The notes under the pieces: model-generated
What the model saw: only the letters and a program-made list of their open reading frames with translations
Databases searched by the model: none
What the model was told of the DNA's origin: nothing
Part shown: piece by piece, positions 1-17,271 of the stretch
Layout: each line of letters starts with the position of its first letter
Numbering within the stretch: the stretch's first letter is position 1
Translations under genes and position numbers: made by a program
NCBI GenBank assembly: GCA_964345045.1
Contig: CAYFPM010000001.1
Location: forward strand, 539,264-603,263
Length of the DNA: 64,000 bases
DNA from: an uncultured Gammaproteobacteria bacterium
GTDB lineage: Bacteria; Patescibacteriota; Patescibacteriia; Magasanikbacterales; UBA922
Reading direction: 5' to 3'

Positions 1-100
1 CAAAAATAACTTATACACATTTTCTTTTGTACTTTACACTTTTAATGCTACAGTAAATATATAACCGGCTAACAAGCCACAGGAGAGAAGGGAGGACGCC

Positions 101-433
101 ATGCAGCGTCTTTTTCTATTGACTCTTCTGGGCCTTTGTCCGGTCTTCGGAGGTTGTGTCTCGATCGAGCTAAAATTCGAGACGGCTGTGAGGACGGTGC
201 ACCACCATCACCACAGTAACAACCGATGCGAGGAGAGACGAGCAAAAGCAAAGACCAAACCTGAATCAGCAACACCTCTTCCGGCGCTGGTCTCGTCGGA
301 GTTGAGCTTTCGCTACGCAGAGGAAGGCGTAGCTAGGACTTCCACAACCTCGAGAGTGGAAGACCTCCTCAGCCTGGTAGTGAAACCAGGCAACATCGAA
401 GAAGACCGCGAAGAGGAAGGCGCGGAAGAGTAA
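101..433 (+). CDS. hypothetical secreted protein (N-terminal signal peptide, His-rich stretch); GC-rich island gene
   Basis: ORF track; hydrophobic N-terminus LLTLLGLCPVFGGC; strong SD GGAGAGAAGGGAGG ~8 nt upstream of the ATG; local GC far above the AT-rich surroundings. Confidence 0.4.
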   Translation: MQRLFLLTLLGLCPVFGGCVSIELKFETAVRTVHHHHHSNNRCEERRAKAKTKPESATPLPALVSSELSFRYAEEGVARTSTTSRVEDLLSLVVKPGNIEEDREEEGAEE

Positions 434-443
434 CAACTAGAGG

Positions 444-489
444 GGTGATCCCGGCTGTAGGAGCCGTCGAGGGCAGCCGGGATCACCTT
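444..489 (+). terminator. GC-rich perfect hairpin (GGTGATCCCGGCTG...CAGCCGGGATCACC) just after the stop of the 101..433 ORF; no clear U-tract
   Basis: inverted repeat read directly in the sequence. Confidence 0.3.
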
Positions 490-564
490 CTCGCCCACTT
501 GCAATCAACCTTGTTTAGGTTGTTTTATTTTTGCTAAATTTAGTTAAATTTATATGTTTTTAGC

Positions 565-593
565 TTGACAAATAGCTTCAAATTTGTTATTAT
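565..593 (+). promoter_or_regulatory. sigma70-like promoter TTGACA-N17-TATTAT, followed by a ~170-nt leader to the 768 ATG
   Basis: TAGCTTGACA at 561-570, TATTAT at 588-593; SD GGGAGG at 756-761. Confidence 0.4.
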
Positions 594-767
594 CACCGAC
601 TACTTTTTAGTAGCTATGTTCTTTCAAATGCGAATTAGCTTGGGATTTTGAGGCGTATATTTGCGCCCCAGTATCTCTAGCTAATTTGCTACAAGCAAAG
701 AGGCTACGAGTGGCAAAAACTGCGTCGTTTTTTCGGCGCCTTTTCCGAAGTTTCATGGGAGGACCAT

Positions 768-1949
768 ATGAACTTCACTCGCTTGGCGAGCATGATCGCC
801 GTTCTGTTCACCCTTTCCGTCGTGGCCTGCGGGCCGAGCTACGACATCAACCTGCCCGAGCCCGAGGTGGTGGTCAACGAGACCGTCACCTCGACCACGA
901 TCGTCATCAACAACACCGAGACGTCGACCACCATCGTGGTCGATGGGAACTGTCGCTACGGCGCCCACACGCAGCGCCACCTCTACATCGGTGACATCAC
1001 GAGAACCGAAGTGGAGGCCGGGCAGAGCCTGGTGGTGGCTGGTGCGGATCTCATCCCCAGTTGCGAGGGCAAAGAAATCTTCCTCCGCTCGGTTGCATTC
1101 CGGATCAACACCAACGAGGTCGGCGAGATCATCACCGACACTCGACTCATGATCGGCCCAGAGTTGGTCACCAACGCGAACTTCACCAACAACCGCGATC
1201 GCATCTTCACCTGGATTCTCCCAAACGCACGGCCAATCGACTACAGCGGCATGGGGTTCAATATCCTGGCCACCACTAGCACGTCGGCACCGCTCGGGTA
1301 CTACGGCATAGACATCGTCGAACTCGTCATCGAAGACGAGAACGGTGATGTTGTAGAAACCAGTCCCATGAACGGAGGCTGGTCCTTCCAGATCGTTGAA
1401 AGAACCGCAGGCTACTGCGAAGGTGCTGGCTGCTGTGGCACGGGGACAACCTGGGACTCAGTCCGAGAGATCTGCATCGCAGATGTACAAATTTCCCAAT
1501 GCGGTGGCAACCTAAACCTAATACCGGCTCTCAACGTAGGCAATAACACCTACGGCCCAGGTCAGGCAGCCGAGTGGTTCTTCGATCTGGAGAACCAGGC
1601 CAGTGAGGCTAGCAACCTTGAGCGACTTACTTTTGTTCTAAGTGGTCAATCGATTCAACCGTGGGTCAACTGCACTTTTGGTACTGCTAGCGGGGTCCTA
1701 CTCGACAGCGGTAGTATCCCCACCACTGCCTATCGTGTAGAATTCTTGCTCAACTCGGGAGCAGGATACATACTGCCAGCCGGAGCCACAGAACGTATGG
1801 TCGTACGGTGCCAACTCTCTTCACAGATGGTCAACTCTGGCCGACAGTGGCTGTCGCTCATCAAGATGGGAGCAGAAGGCAATCGAACCCGGTGCAGCAT
1901 GCCCTGGCTCGGGGCCTTCCACGATTGGGTGGACATCGTCGGCAACTAG
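768..1949 (+). CDS. hypothetical secreted lipoprotein (signal peptide ending in a lipobox-like VVAC); GC-rich island gene
   Basis: 393-aa ORF; N-terminus MNFTRLASMIAVLFTLSVVAC; high GC; other-frame ORFs in the same span are GC artefacts. Confidence 0.55.
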   Translation: MNFTRLASMIAVLFTLSVVACGPSYDINLPEPEVVVNETVTSTTIVINNTETSTTIVVDGNCRYGAHTQRHLYIGDITRTEVEAGQSLVVAGADLIPSCEGKEIFLRSVAFRINTNEVGEIITDTRLMIGPELVTNANFTNNRDRIFTWILPNARPIDYSGMGFNILATTSTSAPLGYYGIDIVELVIEDENGDVVETSPMNGGWSFQIVERTAGYCEGAGCCGTGTTWDSVREICIADVQISQCGGNLNLIPALNVGNNTYGPGQAAEWFFDLENQASEASNLERLTFVLSGQSIQPWVNCTFGTASGVLLDSGSIPTTAYRVEFLLNSGAGYILPAGATERMVVRCQLSSQMVNSGRQWLSLIKMGAEGNRTRCSMPWLGAFHDWVDIVGN

Positions 1950-2059
1950 ATACCCCCCGAGAGAGCCTCTTTGCTTGCGACTCTCCGGTTCGATTCACTT
2001 CGAGCCGGAGGGTCAAAAAGCATTCAATAATTTTAAAAAATTAAAGTTATTGATAAATA

Positions 2060-2096
2060 AAAAATCCTTCTAGACGAAGGATTTTTTATTTTGAAA
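2060..2096. terminator. bidirectional rho-independent terminator (ATCCTTC-TAGAC-GAAGGAT flanked by T/A runs)
   Basis: 7-bp stem with a U-tract on both strands; sits at the dus stop. Confidence 0.55.
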
Positions 2097-3090
2097 AATT
2101 ATTTTTAAATTCTAGGAGCAAATCTTCCAATTCTTCTAGAGAATTAACTCTTACCAATTTTCCTCGAAATTCTTTGATACCCGGAATTTCCAAACCAATT
2201 TTATTAGTTTTGAAATACCAACTAAGATGCTTGCGAAAAGTTACAATCCCCCGTTCGCCATACTGCTCTACATGCAACTTAGCATGACGCAAAACCACAT
2301 CTCCCCTTTCTTCAATTGGAACCAAGAGATCCTTCGACTCCGCTGCGCTTCGTTCAGGATGACTAAGCGCTAGTCTGAAAAACCAAGGGTTGCCAAGAGC
2401 ACCCCTTGCAATCAAAGCTCCGTCTGCATCGGTTTGTTCCAAAACTTCTTTTACTTGATATGGCTCGTGGATGTCTCCATTGGCTAGGAGCGGCACACTA
2501 GCAATTTCTTTGGCTATTTTGATCCTTCCCCAATCACTAACTCCACTATACCCTTGAGCTTTGGTGCGACCATGAATCGTTATCAAATCTGCGCCAGCTT
2601 TTTCTACCACTGGAATAAAATTTTTAAAATCATCTGGATCACTCCAACCAAGCCTTATTTTTACAGATAGAGGGGTATTACCTATAGCGGCTTTCATTTC
2701 TTTTACAATTTTGGCAGCCAGGTCTGGATCTTTCATTAAAGCGCAACCATTAAAATTGCTGGTGATTTTGTAAACCGGGCAGCCCATGTTTATATCTATA
2801 CCTTCGGGTCTGGCATGTTCCATTACAATTGCAGCAGATTTGGCCATGGTCATAGGATCGGCTCCAAAAATTTGTTGCACGATTGGTCGCTCTGCCTCTA
2901 CAAAATCTGTCATGCCCAAGGTCTTTTCGTTTTCTCGCACAATTGCTTCGCTAGATACCATTTCACGAAACACAACACTGGCTCCACCGATTTGACGCAC
3001 TATTTGGCAAAAAGCCGAATCCGTCATATCGGCCATAGGTGACAGAGCCATAATTTTACCTTTATTTTTTAGAGTTTCTTCTATCCACAT
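2086..3090 (-). CDS. dus: tRNA-dihydrouridine synthase (Dus family, TIM barrel)
   Basis: matches Dus motifs (MADMTDSAFCQIVRQ..., GIDINMGCPV, KIRLGW); the true start is probably the internal MALSP... Confidence 0.85.
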   Translation of the reverse strand: MWIEETLKNKGKIMALSPMADMTDSAFCQIVRQIGGASVVFREMVSSEAIVRENEKTLGMTDFVEAERPIVQQIFGADPMTMAKSAAIVMEHARPEGIDINMGCPVYKITSNFNGCALMKDPDLAAKIVKEMKAAIGNTPLSVKIRLGWSDPDDFKNFIPVVEKAGADLITIHGRTKAQGYSGVSDWGRIKIAKEIASVPLLANGDIHEPYQVKEVLEQTDADGALIARGALGNPWFFRLALSHPERSAAESKDLLVPIEERGDVVLRHAKLHVEQYGERGIVTFRKHLSWYFKTNKIGLEIPGIKEFRGKLVRVNSLEELEDLLLEFKNNFSK

Positions 3091-3285
3091 AAACTAAAAG
3101 TTGTTTGAGTTTTCTAAGTTTACTAAGTAACTAAAATAAAAAACTTAGTTAACTAAATAAACTTAGCCAACCTAGCAAACTTAGAATAAGTTATCCCCAT
3201 ACTACCCACTTTTTACCCAAAAATCAACCCTTGCCAAGAATATAGATTGCTGATAATGTGCCTATACAACCAAACACATTTATTG

Positions 3286-3400
3286 TGGAACTGGGGTTAG
3301 AGTCCCCGACTGTGCCGCAACGGTAAAGTCCTCCAACTACTTGAGAGGAACAAGTCCGATCTTCGATAAATGTGCCAATCCCGAGCAGGATAAAAAGTCA
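3286..3400 (+). ncRNA. candidate cobalamin (B12) riboswitch aptamer
   Basis: GGAACTGGGGTTAGAGTCCCCGACTGTGCCGCAACGGTAAAG resembles the E. coli btuB riboswitch core (GGGAATCCAGTGCGAATCTGGAGCTGACGCGCAGCGGTAAGG); the downstream genes are B12-binding-type proteins; the 3' B12-box half was not confidently recognised. Confidence 0.4.
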
Positions 3401-3423
3401 AAATAATTTGACCAAGTCTTAAA

Positions 3424-3448
3424 TCTCTGCTCGCAGCAGATTTTTTTA
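3424..3448 (+). terminator. intrinsic terminator immediately upstream of the 3455 ATG; likely the riboswitch expression platform
   Basis: TCTGCT-CGC-AGCAGA stem followed by TTTTTTT. Confidence 0.5.
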
Positions 3449-3454
3449 TTTAAA

Positions 3455-3895
3455 TTGCCTATGAAAAATTTTCTCAAAAACCACAAAGTGCATTTGGCCA
3501 TTTTTTTGGCTCTGGTAGCCATAGCTATAGTTTCTAACAATTACAGCACTAACAAAGAAAACAGCCCCCCGCAAATAATAAAAGAAGTAAGTACCTTATC
3601 GGCAACTATCCAGATAGAAAACGAGGATAGCCTGACAACCAAAATAAAAGAAGAAAGTACAGTTCTAGACTTAATGAAAAAATTAAAAGAAAAAGAGCGA
3701 CTAACTTTTGAAAGTAAGAATTTTGGATCGGGACTTGGAGAATATATCGAATCTATAAACGGTAAAAAAAGCACAGACAAAGAATTTTGGATTTACTACA
3801 TTAATAACAAAAAAGCTACAGTTGGTGTATCGACCTACAAACTGCAGCCAAATGACATAATAACTTGGAAATATGAACAAGATGAAACAAATTAG
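3455..3895 (+). CDS. DUF4430-domain secreted protein (transcobalamin beta-domain-like, putative B12 binder)
   Basis: signal peptide; C-terminal GxGLGEYIESINGKK...EFWIYYINNKKATVGVSTYKLQPNDIITWKY pattern typical of DUF4430. Confidence 0.55.
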   Translation: MPMKNFLKNHKVHLAIFLALVAIAIVSNNYSTNKENSPPQIIKEVSTLSATIQIENEDSLTTKIKEESTVLDLMKKLKEKERLTFESKNFGSGLGEYIESINGKKSTDKEFWIYYINNKKATVGVSTYKLQPNDIITWKYEQDETN

Positions 3896-5879
3896 TTTGG
3901 GGTTGGGTTTAATCACCCTATTGCTATGGCCAGGCAAAGAGGTACTAGCTGCCAACGAAATAGAAGTAAACGTACGAATAGAGGGACCTTCGGCCAATAT
4001 AGTTGATCAAGCTGTACAAATCCCAGATAGTTGTACAGTTACAGATTCTGCCGGAGGTACCCACACCTTTACCAATTACGAGGCTATCTGTGCTCTACAA
4101 GTACTAAAAGAAGCCGGTACCATTGATTTTCAAGCTACAGATTGGGGCTGGGCTATGGCACTAGACAGCATAACTAACATAAAAAATGCTAGTGATTGGA
4201 GTGAATCTTGGTTTATTCGTATAAATAGCGCTACTTCCAACTTTGGGATAGATTCTTTGGTACTTAATCCAAATGATCGTTTACTTTTGGGCTACGGTGG
4301 TTGGCCTTTTCCAGAACCATTACTTTTTGAAAAAACAGGTAATGCTGCCAAAATTGGAGATTCAGTTACCTTTGTCACAAAAATTTGGAATGACGACAAT
4401 GGAGGTTACGAAGATTATCAAAGTCCTGTTATTTTTTATCTAAAAGGAACTCCAATCTCATCGGAAAATGGAGAGATCACTTGGACAGTAGACACCATTG
4501 ACACTTTTCCTATTTGGGTAGAAGCAGTAGGAAAAATAAGAAGTCCCAAATATCAATTTGAACCAAAAGCTACAGAAGCTAATTACATTGGAAATCAAGT
4601 AGGACTAAATACCAAAGAAGCTGTTGATTTTCTAGAAAAAAATCAAAACAAAGACGGCTCATTTGCCAAAAACCAATTATTTTCCGACTGGGCCGCGATT
4701 GCTTTGTCTACACAAGACACCAACAATTCTGCCAGACAAAAAATCACTAACTATCTATTACAAGGAAGAAAACCCGGAAAAAATACTACAGATTACGAAA
4801 GAAGAGCTTTGGCACTTTTGACATTAGGAATTAATCCCTATGATGTAAATGGTAGAAATTATATAGAACCAATTGTAAATGATTTTGATGGAACTCAAAT
4901 TGGTAACAAAGATTATGTAAACGATGATATATTTGGGCTACTTGTCTTGAGAAAATCTGGATTTGATTTGAGGGAAGAAATAATAACAAAATTGACCAAC
5001 CATATTCTCTCTAACCAAAATAAAAATGGTTCTTGGGCAGAAAGCACAGATATGACCTCTGCTGCTATCCAAGCCCTTCAAACAGTAGAAGGAGCCACAA
5101 ATGTTTACGAAGCTTTGGAAAAAGCAAAAAGATATATAAGAACCCAACAAAAAACAAATGGTAGTTTCAACAACAGTGCCTACTCTACAACTTGGGCAAT
5201 ACAGGCAATTACCACTTTGGGAATGGATGCTTCTGACTGGTACAAAAACGACAATACTCCTGTAAATTATCTAGCCGCCTTGCAAGAGCCCGATGGAGGT
5301 TTGGGAAAAGATTCTCCTATTGAAATGAGGATTTGGTTAACTTCCTACGCTATTCCAGCTTCTTTAGGCAAAAGCTGGGCAGATTTGATGCATGAATTCC
5401 CAAAAGGAGAAATAAAAATAATTGAGAAAAAAGAAGAAACACAGGAAACTTTGGAAGAAACAAAAGAAGAAATAATCTCAGAAAAAACAGAACTTAATAT
5501 CAAAGAAAATATTAAAGAAGACACTGAACCTTTGGAACCTGAACCAAAATTAAGCGAAGAAGTTTTGAAATTAAAAATTGTAGAAGATATATCGGTAGAA
5601 GAACCTAAACAAAATATTATTAGCACAAACCAAATAGAAAGAGAAAGACCTGTAGAGATAGCAGAAGTTGTAGACAATCAAACCGAAGAAAAGATTATTG
5701 AAAACGAAGATCCTGTAATTCTGGAAACAGTATCTGCCGATGGTTCTGTACTGGCTGCTGCCGATAATTTGCCTACAGAAGGATCAAACAGCGCTAGAAA
5801 TGTATTTCGAACAGCTACTACCCTAGCCACCACCCTAGGAGCCTATTTGGCTTGGAGAGCCTTGCAGACTATAGTGTAA
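3873..5879 (+). CDS. surface protein: DUF4430-like domain + alpha/alpha-toroid (prenyltransferase/terpene-cyclase-like repeats), acidic linker, LPTEG sortase signal; transcobalamin-like
   Basis: signal peptide; repeats KDGSF/KNGSW/TNGSF/PDGGL with aromatic residues; LPTEG at 5769-5783 followed by a hydrophobic stretch and a basic tail. Confidence 0.55.
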   Translation: MNKMKQISLGLGLITLLLWPGKEVLAANEIEVNVRIEGPSANIVDQAVQIPDSCTVTDSAGGTHTFTNYEAICALQVLKEAGTIDFQATDWGWAMALDSITNIKNASDWSESWFIRINSATSNFGIDSLVLNPNDRLLLGYGGWPFPEPLLFEKTGNAAKIGDSVTFVTKIWNDDNGGYEDYQSPVIFYLKGTPISSENGEITWTVDTIDTFPIWVEAVGKIRSPKYQFEPKATEANYIGNQVGLNTKEAVDFLEKNQNKDGSFAKNQLFSDWAAIALSTQDTNNSARQKITNYLLQGRKPGKNTTDYERRALALLTLGINPYDVNGRNYIEPIVNDFDGTQIGNKDYVNDDIFGLLVLRKSGFDLREEIITKLTNHILSNQNKNGSWAESTDMTSAAIQALQTVEGATNVYEALEKAKRYIRTQQKTNGSFNNSAYSTTWAIQAITTLGMDASDWYKNDNTPVNYLAALQEPDGGLGKDSPIEMRIWLTSYAIPASLGKSWADLMHEFPKGEIKIIEKKEETQETLEETKEEIISEKTELNIKENIKEDTEPLEPEPKLSEEVLKLKIVEDISVEEPKQNIISTNQIERERPVEIAEVVDNQTEEKIIENEDPVILETVSADGSVLAAADNLPTEGSNSARNVFRTATTLATTLGAYLAWRALQTIV

Positions 5880-5911
5880 TAGTATATCCTGTAGAATATA
5901 AAATAAAAAAT

Positions 5912-6433
5912 ATGAAAAAAAATACTCTAATACTTACAGCCCTATTAATTGCTCTAGGCATTGCTGGTAGGCTACTCCCCCACCCGGCCAATTTTACTCC
6001 AGTAGCAGCGATTGCTCTTTTTGGAGCATTTTACCTGCCCAAACGCTGGGCTGTAGTTTTGCCTCTTTTGGCAATTTTGCTTAGTGATATCTTTATTGGT
6101 TTTTACAATCCAAAGATGATGATCGCTGTTTATGGTAGTTTTGCCATAACTGGTGCTATTGGTCTTTATTTCCGAGAGAAAAAAAGCTTTGCAACAGTAG
6201 CAGCTAGCACCTTGCTTGGTTCGATTATCTTTTTTCTGGTTACCAATGCCGCTGTTTGGGCCTTTGGCACTATGTATACCAAAGATTTAGCAGGACTCTT
6301 GAACAGCTATACCATGGCTATTCCATTTTTTAGAAATAGCTTACTTGGAAATGTGTTTTTTGTAAGTTTGTTGTTTGGTAGTATGGAAATGCTTTTATCC
6401 ACCCAAAAGAAAAAAGCTTCTCTAAAAACTTAA
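5912..6433 (+). CDS. small multi-TM membrane protein, ECF-transporter S-component-like (CbrT-like candidate)
   Basis: ~173 aa, 5-6 TM helices; sits in the putative B12 operon; start taken at MKKNTLIL (5912) rather than the upstream in-frame ORF start. Confidence 0.4.
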   Translation: MKKNTLILTALLIALGIAGRLLPHPANFTPVAAIALFGAFYLPKRWAVVLPLLAILLSDIFIGFYNPKMMIAVYGSFAITGAIGLYFREKKSFATVAASTLLGSIIFFLVTNAAVWAFGTMYTKDLAGLLNSYTMAIPFFRNSLLGNVFFVSLLFGSMEMLLSTQKKKASLKT

Positions 6434-6450
6434 TAAGATTTAAAAATAAA

Positions 6451-6480
6451 AAAACTCCAATGTAAAATTGGAGTTTTTTA
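6451..6480 (+). terminator. rho-independent terminator (CTCCAAT-GTAAA-ATTGGAG + TTTTTT)
   Basis: read directly in the sequence. Confidence 0.65.
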
Positions 6481-6694
6481 TTGGCTATATGTGAGTATAA
6501 CTAAACTAGTGATAAAAAATTTGTTAACTATAGACTTTCTAAAAATGAAATAAAGATCAACTTATACCATAAGTAAAAGTAAAAAGCTCTTCCCTCTCCC
6601 CCCGTTAGCCTGCCCTGATCAAAGCCTCGGGAAGCATATCTGGTAAACAATTTGACCCCACCTAACCTCCCCTCATAGGGGAGGAAAAATTGAT

Positions 6695-8137
6695 TTAACC
6701 AAACTTTACAGTATCCCCATAACCAACCATGTCTCCAGAATCTGTTCGATATTTGCCAGAAGTTGGAGTTTCTTTTTCTTCTGCTTCTTCTTCTGCTACT
6801 GGGGCTACTACCCCCTCTATAGGCAAACCCGGAGGAGGTTCGGCTCGCTTGCCTTGAGCTTTTTGGATAAGCGGTGTTTGTACATGAGACATTGGGAAAT
6901 GCCAAATCGTAGCCAATTCTTCTATGTTCATTATAAAAGGACTGCCTCCACTATTTATTTTTCTTTTCTTAAATGCTTTTACCAAAAGTTTTTTTCTATA
7001 AGATACTCGCTTATCCTTTAGGGCATAAGAAGTGGAGACCGTATACTTGGGTACAATCGAATTTGAACTAGGAATATTAAATTGATTAATAGCTCCAATC
7101 ATAGCTTGAACACCACGTTCTGGTCTAAATACTTCTTTTCTGGCCACATACCCCCCTCTAATCTTGGTTTTAAAGCCTATTTTTGCAATTTTGTTTTCCA
7201 TTGCTTCTACTAGCTTTACTTGCCCTGGTGTCATGTAACGTAATTTATTTGGCTCTCCACTATCGGAATCTTTGCTACTACCAGAAGCTTCTGCTACGCC
7301 TCCACCAGAGAGTTGAGCCCCTATTTCTGCCAAACCTTTGGTAATCTCATCTGCCAACAAATTATCTGTAAGCAAATCGACTGGGCTGGAAGAAGAAGAT
7401 TTGGTTTCTTCACCTATAAATTCTTTTATTTTTTTGATAGATTTTTCTTTCCAACTGTTTCCAGTTGGTTGGAGTAGAATTTGAAACCACATCTGCTCAC
7501 CAGGACCTATTCTACTAAAACTTTCCAAAAATGTTCCCATAGGATCTTTTAGAACTGTATCTTTGGAAATACTGTGTTCAAATTCTGTGTAAGAACGAAT
7601 TGGAAAAGCATCTGATTCTGCCAAGCCAAAATCCCCCATCCAAACATCGTGAGTGTCGTTGGGATATTCGGCTGGAATGTCTTTGGTATAGTCTTCTACT
7701 TCGATAATTTCTGCTTCTGGGTATTGGGCATAGATAGAAGCTTCTACCAAATCTCTAAATTTTGCTTCTGTTCTAACCAAAAACTGAATATAACCCTCTA
7801 TACTAACAACCTCAAAACTAAACCAGCGTTGTTTGTAACCTTGTCGAAATCTTTCTGCCAAATTTGGGGACTCGTAAACCCCGGCAATATGAGCAAACAT
7901 TTGTTCGACCGCTTTTGGAGTCTGAACGTTTAAAGCCGGGATATCTACTGCCAAAAGTACCCACTCCCAATTTTCTTTGTATTTTTCTTCTTTGTATTCT
8001 TCTAGATAATAAACTACCAAAAAAGCAAAAACCCAAAACATTAATATCCAACCAAAAAGCACAAAAAGCTGGTAGATTATAGCTCCAGTAGAATTAGTAC
8101 TAAAAAAATTAGCAATGGTATTGAAATCAAACTGCAT
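6695..8137 (-). CDS. conserved hypothetical membrane-anchored protein (N-terminal TM pair, large soluble domain)
   Basis: 480-aa ORF with coherent composition; no family recognised. Confidence 0.55.
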   Translation of the reverse strand: MQFDFNTIANFFSTNSTGAIIYQLFVLFGWILMFWVFAFLVVYYLEEYKEEKYKENWEWVLLAVDIPALNVQTPKAVEQMFAHIAGVYESPNLAERFRQGYKQRWFSFEVVSIEGYIQFLVRTEAKFRDLVEASIYAQYPEAEIIEVEDYTKDIPAEYPNDTHDVWMGDFGLAESDAFPIRSYTEFEHSISKDTVLKDPMGTFLESFSRIGPGEQMWFQILLQPTGNSWKEKSIKKIKEFIGEETKSSSSSPVDLLTDNLLADEITKGLAEIGAQLSGGGVAEASGSSKDSDSGEPNKLRYMTPGQVKLVEAMENKIAKIGFKTKIRGGYVARKEVFRPERGVQAMIGAINQFNIPSSNSIVPKYTVSTSYALKDKRVSYRKKLLVKAFKKRKINSGGSPFIMNIEELATIWHFPMSHVQTPLIQKAQGKRAEPPPGLPIEGVVAPVAEEEAEEKETPTSGKYRTDSGDMVGYGDTVKFG

Positions 8138-8150
8138 ATTTAGAAAAGCC

Positions 8151-8314
8151 TAAGCATCTATCAGCTTGAGTATAATAAAATAAACTGCAACCAAACCAAT
8201 GGCTGTCCACCACCAACTCTCTTTGCCAGCAAAGTATCCCCCCAAATAAGCCATAAGGCAAGCCATGGTTCCCACAAAAGATATAAAATGCTTCATGAAA
8301 TTTTCAGACATAAC
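8151..8314 (-). CDS. possible small membrane peptide (~54 aa, MSENFMKHFISFVGTMACLMAYLGGYFAGKESWWWTAIGLVAVYFIILKLIDA)
   Basis: manual translation; lies directly upstream of the 480-aa gene on the same strand. Confidence 0.25.
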
Positions 8315-8409
8315 TTTTGCTTTATCTATAAATCTTATTTTTAGTTAGCTATATTCTATCACAAAAACAACCCGCCTGGTAGCGAGTTGTTTAAAATCTT
8401 TGCTAAAGC

Positions 8410-9426
8410 TTATTTTTTGCCCAATTTTGACCAAACTACCAACAAAGGACTGGCCAAGAATATAGAAGAATAAGTACCAATTATAATACCGATAATCAAG
8501 GTAAGCGCAAAATAATGTACCGAATCACCTCCAAAGATTAAGAGGGATAGTAGTACCAACAAGGTTGTAATAGAAGTATTTAATGATCTTGTCAAAGTTT
8601 GATTTACCCCAATGTTAACTGTTTCAGCAAATTTGTCACTACCTCGTTTTACAAGAGTTTCTCTCACCCGGTCAAACACAACAATAGTATCGTTTACAGA
8701 GTAACCCATAATAGTAAGCAAAGCCACTACAAAGGGAATATCTACCTCTACACCATAAACTTTGCCCAATATAGCAAATATAGCCATAGTAATGGTTACA
8801 TCATGAAATAAAGCTATTACCGCAGTTAGACCATATTTCCAAGATTGTACAGGCTTTGAAACTTTTCTAAAGGCATAACCTACATAAAGAATAATAGCAA
8901 CAATTACAGCAATAGCCGCTGAGATTGATCTACTTCTTAGATTGGCACTTACAGTTGGGCCAATCGTCTCAAATCTTTCTTCTAGGACTCTTGGTTTTTC
9001 TTCTTCGTCTCCGGTGCTGACACCTACACTAATCCCATTTTCTCCAACGATATCTATAGTTTCTACTCCCAAATTATTTTCTTCTATAACGGCAGTATCT
9101 TCTTCGGTAGATTCTTCTGCAATCATAGCGCGCAAGGCAGAAAGAACTGTTTGATGCTCTGTTTCGGACAAAAACTTCATTCGGATAATCATGTTTTTGT
9201 CGTCACTTGGTTGGACTAGTACATTGCCTATATCCAATTTTTCAAGTTCTGTTTGTATTTCTTGGTTAGTTGGTCTCTCTGCTGTGTATTCTACTTCTAG
9301 TAGAGATCCACCGGTAAAATCAATCCCAGGTTTTAAACCTACTGTAAACAAAATTACCAAACTAACTGCAAAAAGCAGACTAGAGACTGTAAATGAAATT
9401 TTTCTTTTTGGGATTATGTTCAACAT
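8410..9426 (-). CDS. secF: protein-export membrane protein SecF
   Basis: SecF-like TM pattern and sequence; immediately downstream of secD. Confidence 0.9.
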   Translation of the reverse strand: MLNIIPKRKISFTVSSLLFAVSLVILFTVGLKPGIDFTGGSLLEVEYTAERPTNQEIQTELEKLDIGNVLVQPSDDKNMIIRMKFLSETEHQTVLSALRAMIAEESTEEDTAVIEENNLGVETIDIVGENGISVGVSTGDEEEKPRVLEERFETIGPTVSANLRSRSISAAIAVIVAIILYVGYAFRKVSKPVQSWKYGLTAVIALFHDVTITMAIFAILGKVYGVEVDIPFVVALLTIMGYSVNDTIVVFDRVRETLVKRGSDKFAETVNIGVNQTLTRSLNTSITTLLVLLSLLIFGGDSVHYFALTLIIGIIIGTYSSIFLASPLLVVWSKLGKK

Positions 9427-9427
9427 A

Positions 9428-11464
9428 TTATTTTCTAGCTCCTAGAAAAAATTTACTTCCTTCTTTTTTGAACCAAGGGGTAACAAATCGTAGCATAAGT
9501 CTGGTAATGGTGATAGCTGAAAACATACTTACCAAAACACCAATAGCCAATGTTACAGCGAAACCTTGTACAAAACTAGAACCAAACCAGATTAACAAAA
9601 CACACGTAATAAGAGTAGAAATATTACCATCGCGAATAGATGTCCAAGCTCTTAAGAAACCTTCTTCTACTGAGGCTTTTAGGCTTTTACCTTCTTTTAG
9701 TTCTTCTTTTAACCTTTCAAAAATAAGCACATTGGCGTCTACAGCCAAACCAATCGACAGGATAAAACCGGCAATTCCAGCCAAAGTCAAAGTAACACCG
9801 ATTAGCTTGAACAAAGCCAAAGTCAAAGTAATATAAAGAGTAAGAGCAACTACAGACAATACACCAGGCAATCTATAGTACAAGACCATAAATAGCATAA
9901 CTAATAGCAAACTAATCATCCCGGCTTTTAAACTTTTTTCTAGAGATTCTGCTCCAAGAGTGGCTCCTACAGACTGCTGAGAAACCAAATCAACTGGCAC
10001 AGGCAAAGCTCCGGCATTTAATCTTTGGGTTAGTAGTCTAGCTTCTGCTATATCAAAATTTCCTGTAATTACAGCTCTACCATCGGTAATTGGTTGTTGT
10101 ACCACAGGCACGCTAATAGCCACTCCATCTAGATAAATAGCAATTGGTTTACCAATATTGGCTTCTGTTAATTGTTTGAACAAATCTTTACCTTCTCCAT
10201 CAAACTGCAAAGAAACTTGCAAAGCTCCGGTATTACCATCGCTAACTACTTCGGCTCTTTCCAATTGTGCCCCAGATAATTCTGTTGGTTTGAATGGATC
10301 TTGTGGAGGCAAAATATCTATTTCGGTTTGTTTTGCAATTACTACAGCAGAGATTTCGTATTCTTTTTGAACTTTACGATCTTTTTTGTAAATAATGTGG
10401 TAACCAAATTCGGTTTCAACCGGTCCAATTATTTGACCAACTTCGGCATTGAACACAGCATCTTCAAAAGCGCCTACCATTACTCCTCTACCAAAATAAC
10501 CCAAGTTTCCACCATCATCTTTGTTGGAATAATCGGTTGAGTGCTCGGCAGCTAAGTCGGCAAAATTATTGGCATTAACTTGCTCAAAAATTTCTTGAGC
10601 TTTGGTTTCGGCTTCTTGTTTGGTATAAAGTGGAGCATCACAATTGGCTGCACCCAAGTAACAAATTAGGATATGGCTAGCTTCTATTTCTTCGCCACCT
10701 TCTCTTTCTCCACCTCTTTTTAGAATAGAAAAGGTATTTTCGGTTTCTACCAATTGGCTAGATAATTCTCCTTCGCTAGCGCTGGCGGCCCAATCAAAAA
10801 TTTCTGGAAATGCCGCTGTTTTATTTATAAAGCCAACATAACCATCGTTGTTTCTACTGGCATCTTCGGAATTTTCTCTGGCAGCTTCTGCAAAATCCAA
10901 TTCTTCATTTTTTATTTTGTCCAAAATATCTTGAGCTTTGCTCTTGGCTTCGGCATTAAAATCGTTCATTTGTTGTTTTTCTTCTTCGGTTAGCTCTCTG
11001 GCCGGTTCGGTATTTTCTTCGCGAAATTCCAAAATTGGGGTTTCTCCAATCATTTCAATCGCTTGGTTTACATCTGTTACACCAGGCAATTCTACAATAA
11101 TTCGGTATTGTTCTCCTACTTTGGTAGTTTGAATACTTGGTTCACCTACTCCCAAACCATTAACCCGTCTTTCTATTACATCTCTTACTCCTTCTACAGC
11201 TTCGGCTCTTTCGGCTGGAGCTACTTGTTTGGTATCGGCTTCGTAGATTAGGTGGGCGCCACCTTGCAAATCTAGTCCTAGGGCAAAATCACTTTCCGGG
11301 ATATTTGGCAAGCCCAAAGAAATAGTATTGTTTACTTTGTCTATCCCTTTATTAAAGAATTTTGGAGCAACGTAAAAACTCGTCACTACCAATAGTGCGA
11401 GTATTCCTACTACCCCCCATCTTATTTTGGCTCTTAATTGTGATTTTAACTTATCTGAAGACAT
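9428..11464 (-). CDS. secD: protein-export membrane protein SecD carrying an inserted parvulin-type PPIase domain
   Basis: SecD N- and C-terminal TM bundles; internal ASHILI...GGNLGYFGRGVMVGAFEDAVF...GPVETEFGYHIIYK is a textbook parvulin signature. Confidence 0.9.
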   Translation of the reverse strand: MSSDKLKSQLRAKIRWGVVGILALLVVTSFYVAPKFFNKGIDKVNNTISLGLPNIPESDFALGLDLQGGAHLIYEADTKQVAPAERAEAVEGVRDVIERRVNGLGVGEPSIQTTKVGEQYRIIVELPGVTDVNQAIEMIGETPILEFREENTEPARELTEEEKQQMNDFNAEAKSKAQDILDKIKNEELDFAEAARENSEDASRNNDGYVGFINKTAAFPEIFDWAASASEGELSSQLVETENTFSILKRGGEREGGEEIEASHILICYLGAANCDAPLYTKQEAETKAQEIFEQVNANNFADLAAEHSTDYSNKDDGGNLGYFGRGVMVGAFEDAVFNAEVGQIIGPVETEFGYHIIYKKDRKVQKEYEISAVVIAKQTEIDILPPQDPFKPTELSGAQLERAEVVSDGNTGALQVSLQFDGEGKDLFKQLTEANIGKPIAIYLDGVAISVPVVQQPITDGRAVITGNFDIAEARLLTQRLNAGALPVPVDLVSQQSVGATLGAESLEKSLKAGMISLLLVMLFMVLYYRLPGVLSVVALTLYITLTLALFKLIGVTLTLAGIAGFILSIGLAVDANVLIFERLKEELKEGKSLKASVEEGFLRAWTSIRDGNISTLITCVLLIWFGSSFVQGFAVTLAIGVLVSMFSAITITRLMLRFVTPWFKKEGSKFFLGARK

Positions 11465-11571
11465 ATTTTGTGACCGCTATTTTACCCTAACCTTATTTAG
11501 ACGTCAAGTGATCTTTATATTGGTTATAAACAGGTTGACTTTTTGCTATATTTTGTCTAGTATAACAAACA

Positions 11572-12156
11572 ATGGTGACAACAGACCATTCTCAAAAACC
11601 TTTTTCCAAGGAAGAACAGCAACTTTTAGTTGACGCTCTCGTAGATAGAGCCCAAGCAGCAGCAAAAAACGCCAGGTCCTACCGCGACTTCAAAGTCGGT
11701 TGTGCTTTGCAAGGGGTTTACTACAGCGATCACCTTAAAATTTCGGTTCCCAAAGTCTATACAGGTGCGAACCTCAAACCTGTCCAAGGTGGACCAAAAA
11801 TTTGCGCTGAGCAAGGAGCAATCGCGAGTGCCATAGCCGATGGCTGCACGCACATTACAGCTATTGCGGTTGCCGGCGATCCGCTCAACGAACGAGACCC
11901 GGTGAGTGGCAAAACGCCGGAGACACTGCACCCCTGCCCAACTTGCCGTGCCCTGATGGCCGGACTCCCCGAGATCATCTCAAAAGAGACCTTGATCATC
12001 TTGGCGCCCAACGGTGGCCAGCCAAAGGTGATGACTTTTGGAGAGCTATTGGAGTATCATGCTCCTCCAAAAGTAGAACCAACTGTTTGGAACACAGGTA
12101 CGGGAAGTGGCTACGTCTTCGACACAAGAGGCACGAGATGCCAAGCACCCAAGTAA
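11572..12156 (+). CDS. cytidine deaminase family protein (Cdd-like zinc deaminase) with N- and C-terminal extensions; GC-rich island gene
   Basis: CAEQGAIASAIADG...IAVAGD...HPCPTCRALMA matches the Cdd CAE / PCxxC zinc-binding motifs; TTGACT promoter-like element at 11536; high GC. Confidence 0.55.
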   Translation: MVTTDHSQKPFSKEEQQLLVDALVDRAQAAAKNARSYRDFKVGCALQGVYYSDHLKISVPKVYTGANLKPVQGGPKICAEQGAIASAIADGCTHITAIAVAGDPLNERDPVSGKTPETLHPCPTCRALMAGLPEIISKETLIILAPNGGQPKVMTFGELLEYHAPPKVEPTVWNTGTGSGYVFDTRGTRCQAPK

Positions 12157-12171
12157 AACCAAAGTTAAATC

Positions 12172-12258
12172 AAAAATCACCCACACCTCACATTGTAGCC
12201 AATATTTATTGGAAGCAGTGTAAGGAGTTGGGTGGTTTTTGTTTTGTAAAAAAATTGC
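12172..12258 (+). repeat. ~85-nt structured repeat, copy 1 (second copy at 12597-12690), ending ...AGTGYAAGGAGTTGGGTGGTTTTTGTTTTGTAAAA
   Basis: direct comparison of the two copies; each contains an internal palindrome and a terminal GGTGG-TTTTT. Confidence 0.6.
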
Positions 12259-12301
12259 CCTAAGATTTGACGAGCATGACAATTAATTGTAATGTCTTTT
12301 T

Positions 12302-12577
12302 ATGGATAGAATCACAAAAGCCGTTACCTCCAAAGGCCAGCGACGGGCTCTGCGTAAAAAATTCCCAAATCGGAAGATCCAGTTGTTGGGCGGAATTTGG
12401 TACTTCGTCGATGGAGAAAATCCCGAGGAAATCCCCGGCGCTCCCCAAATGACGGGAGCCAAAGGACTCGCCGCTGCCAGACCCGAACGAGGGCAACACA
12501 AGGTAGCGGCTGCCAGGGACGAACACAGTAGGCCCAAACAAGGCTGGGGGGACTACGGTACCAAGTACAGGTACTAG
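12302..12577 (+). CDS. hypothetical basic protein (91 aa), GC-rich, between the two ~85-nt repeats
   Basis: ORF track only; no SD. Confidence 0.25.
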   Translation: MDRITKAVTSKGQRRALRKKFPNRKIQLLGGIWYFVDGENPEEIPGAPQMTGAKGLAAARPERGQHKVAAARDEHSRPKQGWGDYGTKYRY

Positions 12578-12596
12578 TCCAAAATCACACTCCTTT

Positions 12597-12690
12597 TCTG
12601 TGATAAACAAAAACCACCGACATCTCACATTGCAGTTGCAATATCGACTGCAGTGCAAGGAGTTGGGTGGTTTTTGTTTTGTAAAATTTT
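12597..12690 (+). repeat. ~85-nt structured repeat, copy 2
   Basis: AAAAACCACC...GGTGGTTTTT 10-bp stem enclosing a TGCAGT..ACTGCA inner palindrome. Confidence 0.6.
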
Positions 12691-12736
12691 TCTTGGTAAG
12701 TTCCCTCTCCTAATAGGAGAGGGACAGGGTGAGGTC

Positions 12737-13114
12737 TCAAGACCTAGTTGACTCTAAAATATAAAAACAATCTTCAAGGCATTGCAGTACTGTTTCCCTT
12801 TCAAATAAAACTTCATCATTTAAAAACCTTATTACTACATACCCCTGACTACGCAAATGTAATTCTCGCCAAGTGTCATATTCTTTTTGTTCTTCATGAA
12901 TTGGGCCATCGACTTCAATAATAAGCCTCAACTCATGACAATAAAAATCTACAATAAATCTGCCAATGCTAACCTGCCTACGAAACAAATAACCAACTTT
13001 TTTGTTTCGCAATTCTTGCCACAAAACGCATTCAGCTTTAGTATTATTTCTTCTTAAGGATCTTCTTTTAAATTTTAATTCTTCGTCTTTTACATTACGC
13101 GTTCTTTTCTGCAT
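12737..13114 (-). CDS. DUF559 / Vsr-like endonuclease domain protein
   Basis: ECVLWQELRNKKVGYLFRRQ...FIVDFYCHELRLIIEVDGPIHEEQKEYD matches DUF559; flanked by GC-rich palindromes at 12702-12725 and 13149-13169. Confidence 0.8.
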   Translation of the reverse strand: MQKRTRNVKDEELKFKRRSLRRNNTKAECVLWQELRNKKVGYLFRRQVSIGRFIVDFYCHELRLIIEVDGPIHEEQKEYDTWRELHLRSQGYVVIRFLNDEVLFERETVLQCLEDCFYILESTRS

Positions 13115-13187
13115 ATCCTCCTTTAGTTTTGGTTTAGACCTCCTCCTGCCCTCCTCCTAAAAGGAGGAGGAACTTACTATGAAAACT

Positions 13188-16127: not shown

Positions 16128-16311
16128 AGGTTTAAAAGCCTGCCTGCCGGTAGGCAGGGCTAAAAAAGCTTGCAAGGCTGGCTGATTTATAATAGTTAAC
16201 TGGACTAGCTTAGCACTTTTTTGGCTCTGTGTCTATGGGTAGAAAAATTACTTTACCCTTGACAAAGTGGCTTATTTATGATAAAAATTTGTCAGGAGGC
16301 TCGTCAATTAC

Positions 16312-16509
16312 ATGACTACCAAATGCAATTCTTGCGGACAAAATAGCAAAGGACATATTTGCAAGAGATGCAAGCACAAAAAAGGACTCGCAAAAGGCAA
16401 CCGCAGATGCAACTGCAGAATCTGCCAAGCTCTCAGAGCCGAAACCCACCATGAGTGGCTCGAGTGGAGAAAGCCATTCGACGTACGACAAGCAAGTCCG
16501 CATCAATAG
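16312..16509 (+). CDS. Cys-rich zinc-ribbon mini-protein (CxxC-x8-CxxC plus extra Cys); GC-rich island gene
   Basis: SD AGGAGG at 16295-16300; TTGACA at 16259. Confidence 0.4.
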   Translation: MTTKCNSCGQNSKGHICKRCKHKKGLAKGNRRCNCRICQALRAETHHEWLEWRKPFDVRQASPHQ

Positions 16510-16659
16510 ATACCACAGGAGGTAGGAGGACTACCCCCGTGCGCCCCCCTTTTCTCCCCCCCTTCGCGCACCCATCCAAAAACAATCCCCCGAATTATCG
16601 GGGTTTTTTATTTGACTTTTTTAAATTAATTAGAAAAAATAACTTGGGGAGTAATACTC

Positions 16660-16887
16660 ATGAAAATTTGTGAACTTTGCGGACATCCAAATAATGATGA
16701 AGCCAGATTTTGTGCTGGTCAAATTCGAGACGAAGTCCTAAGAGGCGTGATCAGATCCTGCCGCCACAAACTTGGGGGCACCCAAGATACTGGCTGCGGC
16801 TGCCAAACTTGCAACTATACGGCCGCCCAAAGGAATGAGGGCAACAAATCCAGGTTTGGTTTGGATGGTTCGCTGAGAGTACGATAA
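16660..16887 (+). CDS. Cys-rich zinc-ribbon mini-protein (CELCGH...RFCAG, CGCQTC); GC-rich island gene
   Basis: SD GGGGAG upstream; followed by the 16592-16615 hairpin + T-run region. Confidence 0.4.
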   Translation: MKICELCGHPNNDEARFCAGQIRDEVLRGVIRSCRHKLGGTQDTGCGCQTCNYTAAQRNEGNKSRFGLDGSLRVR

Positions 16888-16982
16888 ATCAGACTCACAC
16901 ACTCCAAGGAGGAAAAATCAATCAAATTATAGTTATTTACAAAAATATTTAATTATTGCTATATTATTTGTGGAGGTTTGGG

Positions 16983-17189
16983 ATGTTTCGAAAAGAAGAC
17001 TTTCTGAGTTTTCTACGCCGACGTAGGAGCAATCAAGCGCCAGCAGCCCTAGAAGGCCAACTAGGTCCACCAGGCAAAGAAGAAGAGCCACAAGTCGTTG
17101 TCGACATTGCTTTCACTGTGAAAGTTGATCCAGATACAGGCGCAATAACCTTCCCCAATGCAGATGAAGATAACGAAGGCGACAAGTAG
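16983..17189 (+). CDS. small acidic hypothetical protein (68 aa); GC-rich island gene
   Basis: SD GGAGG at 16970-16974 before the ATG at 16983. Confidence 0.3.
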   Translation: MFRKEDFLSFLRRRRSNQAPAALEGQLGPPGKEEEPQVVVDIAFTVKVDPDTGAITFPNADEDNEGDK

Positions 17190-17228
17190 CCACCACCCGA
17201 ACCACCACAAGGAGGACCAATCAAAAAA

Positions 17229-17260
17229 TTAAAACCGGCAACGAGCCGGTTTTAAAATTT
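17229..17260. terminator. bidirectional terminator (AACCGGC-AACGA-GCCGGTT)
   Basis: stem-loop with A/T runs on both sides; lies between the island and the hpf stop. Confidence 0.55.
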
Positions 17261-17271
17261 ATAATTTGAAA

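Follow-up and report, generated by a model that had tools for sequence, protein, structure and literature searches.

The concept of horizontal-transfer hotspots, positions between core genes at which accessory genes gather, was reportedly set out by Oliveira, Touchon and Rocha in 2017. Foreign bacterial DNA is usually AT-richer than its host, and its deviating composition is commonly used as a clock that points to recent arrival. We analyse here a stretch of 64,000 nucleotides (hereafter the window; positions 539,264 to 603,263 of contig CAYFPM010000001.1, assembly GCA_964345045.1, order Magasanikbacterales of the Patescibacteriota) in which small GC-rich islands interrupt AT-rich DNA. We consider it moderately probable that these islands mark hotspots of flexible genes that have persisted for long and have been refilled again and again from GC-richer pools by transfer and allele replacement. 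They resemble known hotspots and flexible islets in that accessory genes sit at a few core-flanked positions, that relatives have these positions empty or filled with other cargo, and that composition is atypical. For Patescibacteria, PMC12455944 reports genomic islands as well as frequent transfers among them, and the present islands likewise suggest transfers mostly within Patescibacteria, with some outside donors. They differ from known hotspots in being tiny (one to three genes) and without an integrase or tRNA association.

Three further properties are unusual among hotspots, namely a reversed compositional sign, a separate translation-initiation signal and persistence across very deep divergence, at least two occupants being retained in the same gap. 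The accessory genes, many of them encoding surface lipoproteins, stay GC-richer than the core at saturated divergence, so that the composition clock fails, and they use a ribosome-binding signal, the strong Shine–Dalgarno (SD) site, that core genes have largely dropped. Composition-based island finders would label these genes as recent horizontal transfers, which would be misleading here.

GC-rich genes and their expression signals

The window has a GC content of 38.9% (200-nt windows: mean 0.389, standard deviation 0.068). A preliminary description of the same DNA had reported GC-rich islands on a background of about 33%; the background was set too low, while the islands and their coordinates are confirmed by sliding-window GC, which gives the following blocks.

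51-550: high-GC block, GC 0.52
651-2050: high-GC block, GC 0.55, peak 0.64
11651-12200 and 12301-12650: high-GC block, GC 0.52
16301-16900 and 17001-17250: high-GC block, GC 0.47-0.50
34551-34800: weaker high-GC block, GC 0.49
51601-52250: high-GC block, GC 0.48
58401-59850: high-GC block, GC 0.58, peak 0.645
62901-63250: weaker high-GC block, GC 0.48

Deviating composition and codon usage, one mark of horizontally acquired islands, are thus present (GC 0.47-0.58 against 0.39; GC at third codon positions, GC3, up to 0.73). By gene, GC3 is 0.57 in the lipoprotein gene A110, 0.71 in the lipoprotein gene B393, 0.50 in a deaminase (cdd-like) gene, 0.58 in the membrane-protein gene p222 and 0.73 in nhaA. 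Island genes range from 0.43 to 0.73, with p68 and p86 as exceptions (0.36), against 0.20-0.45 in core genes, mostly below 0.40. The difference sits at synonymous sites and is therefore not an effect of amino-acid composition. GC-richness is not a general property of secreted proteins here either, since two large surface proteins on the minus strand, one with SdrD_B, DUF11 and DUF4114 domains (27281-30658, GC3 0.20) and one with bacterial TSP3 repeats (41229-42641, GC3 0.27), are encoded by some of the most AT-rich genes. Structural RNA as the source of the GC peaks was ruled out: the window has no tRNA genes, no Rfam family reached its gathering score across it, and the two main leaders returned only noise at E <= 1.

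The window is a stretch of a Magasanikbacteria-like chromosome belonging to Patescibacteria, also called the candidate phyla radiation (CPR), from a tiny, AT-rich genome. Its core genes (secDF, secA, hpf, murB/C, infB, leuS, comEC and others) form a typical Patescibacteria set, and the gene order around infB is common to two Candidatus Magasanikbacteria genomes (loci L015 and L026), in which IF2 is 65-69% identical. Sharp steps of composition within a metagenome assembly could also arise from contaminant reads joined into a CPR contig, an explanation that we find extremely improbable. An ENA contig, two Logan assemblies of two different runs and a 621-kb NCBI contig, which also encodes the island proteins, all match the window at 100% identity; the identity of three assemblies from two sequencing runs includes both NhaA junctions, through which the assembly of run ERR2281803 reads, and independent genomes from other studies hold equivalent GC-rich genes in the same gaps. 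Chimerism is thus ruled out as far as sequence data allow.

The GC-rich genes are also set apart by their translation signals. A GGAGG-type SD motif at -20 to -4 precedes 11 of the 14 island genes (12 once the start of the membrane-protein gene p150 is moved to 63340) and 4 of 45 core genes (Fisher p = 1.4e-6). The strong SD sites first attributed to the island genes therefore hold for all but a few, the cdd-like gene and the small gene p91 having none, and the statement that host genes often lack one is borne out; most core genes have an AT-rich leader of AAATT-ATG type before the start. The CCUCC motif at the 3' end of 16S rRNA, which would make SD sites functional, is reported to be missing in about half of Parcubacteria (PMC9297842). 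As for transcription, -35 boxes were found at 565, 11535 (TTGACT), 16259 and 58246, with another for p222 at 52543-52538 (minus strand). The near-consensus TTGACA boxes initially noted do exist at their sites, but with 23 sites in the window against 40 +/- 6 expected, the hexamer shows no enrichment, and it also serves core genes, for example at 39740, 30729, 44136 and 61071. The island boxes lie in AT-rich spacers outside the GC-rich blocks, and the promoters look resident-type rather than imported. A hairpin closes each unit (terminator scan and folding), so that every island gene, with its own promoter and hairpin end, would be an independent transcription unit.

These observations suggest a common layout, in which a resident-type sigma-70 promoter in an AT-rich spacer would be followed by a leader, a strong SD site, a GC-rich coding sequence and a hairpin terminator. 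The SD sites would allow translation to start on GC-rich mRNA in a genome whose other genes use AT-rich leaders. The GC-rich blocks would represent accessory genes that stand alone or in pairs at a small number of intergenic hotspots, each flanked by conserved core genes (folD–dus, secD–secA, secA–hpf, EamA–glyA, ECF-sigma–gdh, infB–ppa and methyltransferase–next gene). Most of the predicted cargo belongs to the envelope (two lipoproteins, NhaA, polytopic membrane proteins and small membrane peptides), and the rest would be zinc-ribbon proteins and a divergent deaminase. The cargo first listed holds for NhaA, the deaminase and the four zinc-ribbon proteins; island 1 contains two lipoprotein genes and not one.

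Turnover of the gaps and the lipoprotein island

Relatives of the window were collected by a scan with its Dus protein, which returned 80 metagenome contigs, about 60 of them with 53-80% Dus identity. The order hpf-secA-secD-secF-DUF8128-dus-folD is kept in many of these approximately 60 related contigs that are long enough to show it, and three of its gaps vary widely in length.

dus–folD gap: 37 bp to 6.9 kb in relatives
secA–secD gap: 77 bp to 2.7 kb in relatives
hpf–secA gap: 106 bp to 1.0 kb in relatives

Every window island except NhaA corresponds to an empty gap in at least one relative, which is the patchy presence at a conserved position expected of horizontally acquired islands. Filled gaps in relatives usually hold cargo other than that of the window, often GC-rich and SD-led and frequently encoding lipoproteins. 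Among 806 open reading frames (ORFs) from 62 loci, those with GC3 more than 0.25 above the locus median (high-GC3 ORFs) compare with ordinary ORFs as follows.

SD present: 36% of high-GC3 ORFs, 5% of ordinary ORFs, p = 3e-7
Lipobox present: 21% of high-GC3 ORFs, 2% of ordinary ORFs, p = 3e-5
Homologues in at most one other locus: 83% of high-GC3 ORFs, 48% of ordinary ORFs, p = 2e-4

The lipobox share of 21% is an underestimate, because several ORF starts are over-extended. No high-GC3 ORF in this set is widely conserved. Only 11% of the accessory singletons are GC-rich, so the GC-rich genes form a special subset of the flexible genome.

One pair of relatives (L093 and L113) reveals the unit of replacement. 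Their DNA is 77-83% identical through dus and the spacer; homology ends about 36 nt before the start of a lipoprotein gene and returns about 8 nt before its stop, and the interval consists of 906 and 912 bp of unalignable GC-rich DNA encoding Cys-rich lipoproteins with trace similarity (z = 5.6). The exchanged unit is the SD site plus the coding sequence within a conserved promoter/terminator frame. The islands had been taken for self-contained cassettes with TTGACA promoters of their own, a view not supported by this coding-sequence-precise replacement or by the resident type of the island promoters in the AT-rich spacer. In a second pair (L093 and L107), the lipoprotein has 56% amino-acid identity, with fourfold-degenerate sites identical at 0.67 (0.39 expected), and the neighbouring EamA gene has 69% amino-acid identity, with fourfold sites at 0.42 (0.28 expected). 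Because its fourfold sites are more alike than those of the EamA gene, the lipoprotein gene is younger than its flanks, and by the same comparison it evolves fast at the protein level.

In the window, the folD–dus gap holds island 1, with these features.

61-100, plus strand: 5' leader of A110, GC-rich, with SD GGGAGGA (GGAGG at 91-95)
101-433, plus strand: A110, putative lipoprotein of 110 aa (MQRLFLLTLLGLCPVFGGC...), GC 0.54, GC3 0.57
442-522, plus strand: A110 terminator, a hairpin (arms 444-457 and 474-487) followed by a hairpin at 506-522 and a T-run, -37.4 kcal/mol, z = -4.3
565-593, plus strand: B393 promoter of sigma-70 type, TTGACA-17-TATTAT with TG extension, in an AT-rich spacer, matching at 11 of 12 positions
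594-767, plus strand: B393 5' leader, about 165 nt, ending in SD GGGAGGA (GGAGG at 758-762), no Rfam match
768-1949, plus strand: B393, Cys-containing lipoprotein of 393 aa (lipobox VVAC), GC 0.57, GC3 0.71
1964-2091, plus strand: B393 3' region, with a hairpin rich in GC (about 1979-2015) and a bidirectional terminator rich in AT (2055-2091) that is shared with dus, -57.1 kcal/mol, z = -8.6

The promoter at 565 is the best promoter match within positions 1-18000. Both proteins match the lipobox expression [LVI][ASTVI][GAS]C after a signal peptide (LFTLSVVAC, then G, in B393; LCPVFGGC, then V, in A110); Lgt and LspA genes were not found in the window. The amino acids of B393 are also of GC type, with R/(R+K) at 0.90 against about 0.33 in core proteins. 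A110 has no Pfam or PHROG match, and its homology to a 116-aa lipoprotein of L171 was rejected: the position is equivalent and C[IV][ST]IE[FL] follows the lipobox, but blastp gave no alignment. For B393, the AlphaFold2 (AF2) model is of low confidence (predicted local distance difference test, pLDDT, 54), with only a beta-sandwich at about residues 60-210 well modelled; Foldseek likeness to cohesin/Ig-like modules (template-modelling score up to 0.65 on the target) was insufficient to assign a function. B393 is bracketed by a perfect 14-nt inverted repeat, CAAGCAAAGAGGCT at 692-705 in the 5' leader and AGCCTCTTTGCTTG at 1964-1977 just past the stop, which is the longest flanking repeat among the 503 genes tested and could reflect 5'-3' mRNA pairing, an element end or chance.

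The B393 family is diverged, and members in relatives occupy the same gap. A word-indexed search gave no relative, and a full HMMER pass over 1.84 billion representatives gave four (P0130 to P0133) at 27-32% identity; genomic context was read for P0130, P0131 and P0133. P0130 follows folD directly in locus L169 (GC3 0.91 against 0.44 in folD), with a TTGACA promoter in an AT-rich spacer. P0131 adjoins dus in locus L171, whose Dus is 72% identical to that of the window, within a row of four GC-rich lipoprotein genes (GC3 0.86, core about 0.47). These two share the folD–dus gap with B393, and P0133 lies in a third low-GC context (GC3 0.79 against 0.30-0.49 in its neighbours). In L171 (7324-10913) and L169 (1586-4178), the dus/folD gap is filled by two to four consecutive lipoprotein genes rich in GC (GC3 0.59-0.91; core about 0.45-0.5). 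In relatives, the homologues of B393 and other GC-rich lipoprotein genes equal genomes of 65-72% GC in how extreme their codon usage is; B393 itself is less extreme. Between B393 and its same-gap homologues, fourfold sites at conserved residues are identical at 0.31 (0.31 expected) and 0.37 (0.30 expected), that is, at saturation. Judged from these comparisons, island 1 is old rather than recent.

A family that keeps such composition at saturated divergence also fits in-situ maintenance, in which CPR-restricted GC-rich genes, above all hypervariable lipoproteins, would be old residents whose high GC is actively held. We regard this as possible rather than probable. GC could be held by GC-biased gene conversion between divergent alleles, acting only at mismatches inside hypervariable coding sequence, or by selection on codon or mRNA properties, and GC-rich, structure-prone mRNA amid AT-rich leaders would then account for the SD sites. 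Several lines of evidence agree with such maintenance: one family stands in one gap with GC3 of 0.71, 0.91 and 0.86 against 0.30, 0.44 and 0.47 in the core; no outside donor was found for the CPR-restricted families; the SD core TGGGAGGAC is common to B393 and P0130 although neutral sites are saturated; the divergent segment coincides with the coding sequence; the amino acids of B393 are of GC type; and a competence gene is present. However, the GC3 excess of 0.3-0.5 lies far above the effects that Lassalle et al. reportedly described in 2015 for bacterial biased gene conversion, and the small effective population sizes expected of CPR bacteria make selection on hundreds of synonymous sites unlikely. 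In-situ maintenance also leaves NhaA, with its clear Myxococcota relatives, unexplained, and it sits poorly with the AT-rich surface proteins of the same genome, with the L093/L107 lipoprotein gene being younger than its flanks, and with the patchiness of the family, the two relatives closest by Dus identity (L086 and L089) lacking the B393 locus wholly. Should the cause lie within the genome, for example in biased gene conversion at hypervariable loci, this would be an unusually strong bacterial example.

Hypervariable surface-antigen loci offer a partial parallel. The vls lipoprotein locus is GC-rich in AT-rich Borrelia burgdorferi, and O-antigen and capsule loci are low in GC and bracketed by conserved genes. 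Like these, island 1 combines a lipoprotein gene in a conserved frame, extreme divergence confined to the coding sequence and a composition stably off that of the genome, and the GC-rich direction of its deviation matches vls and not the polysaccharide loci. Unlike them, the island genes have no silent cassettes or repeats nearby, and no antigenic-variation machinery was identified.

Source and age of NhaA and the deaminase-like gene

The infB–ppa gap of the window holds nhaA, with the following features.

58246-58485, plus strand: AT-rich nhaA promoter (TTGACA at 58246) and leader of about 200 nt
58486-59736, plus strand: NhaA, a Na+/H+ antiporter of 416 aa (387 aa if it starts at ATG 58573), GC 0.60, GC3 0.73
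59859-59906, plus strand: intrinsic terminator hairpin after NhaA
59948-60208 (86 aa) and 60332-60523 (63 aa), plus strand: two SD-led small membrane peptides, mildly GC-rich

NhaA matches PF06965 at 9e-61 (206.2 bits, cut-off 23.5) over profile positions 12-369 of 374. D166/D167 in LLLLAVADDG are invariant across a 20-sequence alignment, and we take them to correspond to D163/D164 of E. coli NhaA, the conserved ion-binding aspartate pair. The best matches come from Myxococcota and Bdellovibrionota at 65-71% identity, the nearest at 70-71%, and the contigs with the closest homologues have 61-73% GC. The window copy is thus like these antiporters in its full-length match, the aspartate pair in AVADDG, identity and GC, and differs in being set in a CPR genome of 39% GC, behind an AT-rich promoter and a leader with an upstream ORF. 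This upstream ORF of 20 codons (MAICEFSFLLRRLNCSLQDR; 58306-58368) has a strong SD site and is followed by a hairpin (58380-58434); it may be a leader-peptide control element. No Rfam riboswitch matched the leader, and the Li+/Na+ riboswitch motif was likewise not found there.

Both Magasanikbacteria genomes examined have nhaA in the same gap, divergent from infB and upstream of ppa, where it is GC-richer than its flanks (0.557 against 0.404 in L015 and 0.444 against 0.347 in L026). None of the three copies has another of them as its closest relative. A grouping of the L015 copy with a Myxococcota NhaA, to the exclusion of the window copy, has bootstrap values of 100% with amino acids and 98% with Dayhoff-6 recoding, and the affinity of the window copy to the homologues P0002, P0003 and P0007 reaches bootstrap values of only 57% and 33%. 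GC at fourfold sites is 0.60-0.65 in the window copy, 0.56-0.58 in L015 and 0.36 in L026, against 0.75-0.99 in Myxococcota-type genes, a gradient that looks like transfers of different age under amelioration. Fourfold-site identity to the nearest Myxococcota-type relative is 0.32, with 0.27 expected at saturation. On these sequence comparisons, NhaA clearly has an outside, Myxococcota-type origin and is not a recent one-off. A mosaic NhaA, with CPR ends and a Myxococcota middle, found no clear support in sliding-window identities.

The secD–secA gap holds the cdd-like gene together with p91 and two long hairpins.

11535-11563, plus strand: promoter-like TTGACT-17-TAGTAT of the cdd-like gene
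11572-12156, plus strand: cdd-like gene, divergent protein of cytidine/deoxycytidylate-deaminase fold, 194 aa (CAEQ ... PCPTC), GC3 0.50
12167-12245, plus strand: long hairpin terminator, copy 1, after the cdd-like gene, -37.3 kcal/mol, z = -6.1
12302-12577, plus strand: p91, ORF of 91 aa without SD, called as a gene in public assemblies, GC 0.55
12605-12680, plus strand: long hairpin terminator, copy 2, after p91, -39.3 kcal/mol, z = -5.8
12737-13114, minus strand: DUF559 endonuclease-like accessory gene, SD-led but AT-rich, PF04480 at 8e-34, GC3 0.25

The cdd-like protein scores 36.6 bits against PF00383 (cut-off 25), and its zinc motifs CAEQ and PCPTC are readable in the translation. Its start codon lies about 8 nt past the -10 box, so its mRNA would be almost leaderless, with no SD site. 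The nearest relatives are 35-41% identical; the best, at 41%, belongs to another Patescibacteria genome and sits in a GC-rich, SD-led block (GC3 0.70 against 0.34-0.50), and a relative with 32% identity occupies a different gap, DUF8128–dus (L131/L132).

These data bear on the age of the islands. The preliminary description read them as recent, one-off acquisitions of self-contained promoter-gene-terminator cassettes, which we now consider unlikely, and which is already contradicted for NhaA, B393 and the cdd-like gene. The atypical GC3, the SD sites, the individual promoters and terminators, the empty gaps of several relatives, and p222, p150, the zinc-ribbon genes and p91, which have no homologues in any fetched locus, agree with recent arrival. 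Recent acquisition should leave near-identical copies and unsaturated synonymous sites relative to the donor, and neither was found. Searches of 5.8 and 1.84 billion proteins gave no relative of any island protein above 71% identity (closest: NhaA 71%, cdd-like 41%, B393 32%), and every 90% cluster holds this genome only. Distant relatives carry NhaA and the B393 family in the same gaps, the synonymous sites being saturated, for NhaA against its nearest Myxococcota-type relatives, and the promoters lie within host-like AT-rich DNA. "Recent" must therefore be dropped, and "horizontal acquisition" stands in part: the accessory genes are compositionally foreign and NhaA has an outside origin, but the relatives of B393 and the cdd-like gene are found only in CPR genomes. 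Best matches in close relatives of the same GC, named at the outset as an outcome that would speak against acquisition, are what B393 and the cdd-like gene show, and NhaA shows them in part.

Under repeated refilling, GC-richer gene pools would have supplied the genes by horizontal transfer at various times, and turnover would consist of gain, loss and allele replacement among related lineages at the same hotspots. Myxococcota-type bacteria would be the source of NhaA, with more than one acquisition probable across the clade, and the lipoprotein and deaminase families would circulate within CPR bacteria; the GC3 spread from 0.73 to about 0.4 would reflect differing degrees of amelioration toward host composition. 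The competence gene comEC, present in the window, would offer an uptake route. Composition, signals, synteny, gap occupancy, replacements in relatives and the donor affinity of NhaA were observed; this route, the direction and number of the transfers, and the expression and function of the genes are inferred. If continual influx is true, the islands map the gene pools contacted by uncultivated symbionts, possibly their hosts, with Myxococcota implicated for NhaA.

Several points weigh against repeated refilling. No integrase or transposase (Pfam, about 40 ORFs), tRNA gene or flanking direct repeat explains insertion in the window, and no GC-rich donor was found for the B393 or cdd-like families, whose located homologues are all in CPR contexts of low to moderate GC. 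The B393 homologues in the same gap have saturated synonymous sites, yet all have GC3 of 0.71-0.91, which excludes one ancient transfer, so that re-seeding from an unseen pool must be assumed. These CPR-restricted families keep extreme GC3 with no GC-rich donor in view. Neighbour-joining trees of NhaA are weak for the window copy, family identities being flat at 60-70%, and three NhaA copies in one gap are awkward for independent acquisitions.

A joint reading that draws on both processes appears doubtful to us as a whole. It would have Magasanikbacteria-like CPR bacteria hold envelope genes in a second regime (GC3 0.7-0.9, SD-dependent initiation), with GC made in place and Myxococcota as epibiont hosts. 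Alleles consisting of coding sequence only may be exchanged inside conserved regulatory frames, their GC may come from GC-biased repair of heteroduplexes between hyperdivergent alleles and not from a GC-rich donor, and repeated capture of Myxococcota nhaA into one gap may point to Myxococcota as physical hosts.

Mobile elements and the remaining islands

Mobile-element remnants (phage morons, debris of prophages, integron-type cassettes or miniature transposons carrying cargo) are a very unlikely source of the islands. Phage morons, as described by Hendrix and colleagues, are said to be autonomous promoter-gene-terminator units of deviating base composition inside prophages. The single-gene units of the window are moron-like in having their own promoter and terminator and deviating GC. 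Nevertheless, their promoters are part of the resident spacer, which is AT-rich, core housekeeping genes flank the units, and no integrase, transposase or phage structural gene was found in the 64 kb. Scans of IMG/VR with the B393-family alignment and p222 returned no viral contigs, and PHROGs gave only two marginal matches, both to zinc-ribbon peptides; a phage origin was rejected on this basis.

Integron cassettes are a closer parallel in one respect, as the unit exchanged in relatives is a promoterless SD site and coding sequence, read from a resident promoter, and hairpins follow two window genes. These two long hairpins flank p91 and are homologous, with near-identical outer stems and apical stems that differ yet pair. 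Their 3' arm contains GTTGGGT, which fits the attC core GTTRRRY, but the 5' arms (ACCCACA and ACCACCG) lack the complementary RYYYAAC core and the hairpins end in T-runs like ordinary terminators. No IntI or other integrase domain, attC site with paired RYYYAAC/GTTRRRY cores or cassette array was found in the window, the islands being scattered, and the hairpin pair has no copies in the 174 fetched loci. Flanking repeats give little more to a transposon. Inverted repeats bracket B393 (the 14-nt repeat above) and NhaA (18 nt, 89% complementary), but they are not general for GC-rich genes in relatives: repeats of at least 10 nt flank 5 of 25 GC-rich genes against 4% of controls, a weak trend due partly to shared terminators. 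The islands have no target-site duplications or flanking direct repeats.

The DUF559 gene listed above is absent from the secD–secA gap of relatives. It is bracketed by a perfect small palindrome, TCCCTCTCCTA-A-TAGGAGAGGGA (12701-12724), and a GGAGG/CCTCC cluster (13117-13170). The remaining islands comprise the following features.

16259-17255, plus strand: island 3, three small transcription units with promoter-like sites at 16259, 16612 and 16936
16312-16509, plus strand: Zn1, 65 aa, three CxxC motifs
16660-16887, plus strand: Zn2, 75 aa
16983-17189, plus strand: p68, GC3 0.36
16588-16603 and 17229-17255, plus strand: terminators of island 3
34565-34738 (57 aa) and 34876-35061 (61 aa), plus strand: two SD-led zinc-ribbon mini-proteins between the EamA gene and glyA
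51724-52392, minus strand: p222, polytopic membrane protein of 222 aa, SD AAGGAGG, promoter TTGACA at 52543-52538, GC3 0.58
62936-63340, minus strand: p150, polytopic membrane protein of about 134 aa, SD GGAGG, start corrected to ATG 63340, GC 0.47

The four small CxxC proteins are present as first described. The secA–hpf gap, occupied by island 3, is 106-193 bp long in relatives or filled with other GC-rich genes. The p222 gap is empty in the syntenic region of L026, and the p150 gap is empty (86-257 bp) in L015 and L026. Two genes for extracytoplasmic function (ECF)-type sigma factors (49255-49938 and 50828-51535) adjoin p222, and a regulatory link between them and p222 is possible.

Some minor features were observed along the way. 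The motif ACAC(N)CCAAGGAGGA(NN)AAT(T)CAA stands between stop codon and terminator of three small genes (16897-16921, 17200-17224 and 33459-33483); it is SD-like, yet 3' untranslated, with no usable start codon downstream. The pattern of GC-rich genes extends beyond the window: upstream of it on the same contig (L001), positions 1-1000 have GC 0.44-0.50 and hold a 111-aa ORF with GC3 0.54, and positions 7898-8314 encode a 138-aa ORF led by an SD site. An inverted repeat of 102 nt, 88% complementary, has its arms 38.5 kb apart, one (23112-23213) within the ORF at 22750-23508 and the other (61760-61861) intergenic. In leucyl-tRNA synthetase (45986-49048, minus strand), the editing domain is followed by an inserted alpha/beta-hydrolase domain (residues 469-623; Pfam Abhydrolase_1/6 and Ser_hydrolase). 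The secA gene (13188-16175, minus strand) has a GC peak at 13851-14150 with in-frame GC-rich insertions, GLPSPSPALASEKAQGG and SSPSPALPTVVSTSPLGRGENPALAEVGVGAEGH, which resemble translated GC-rich repeat or hairpin sequence.

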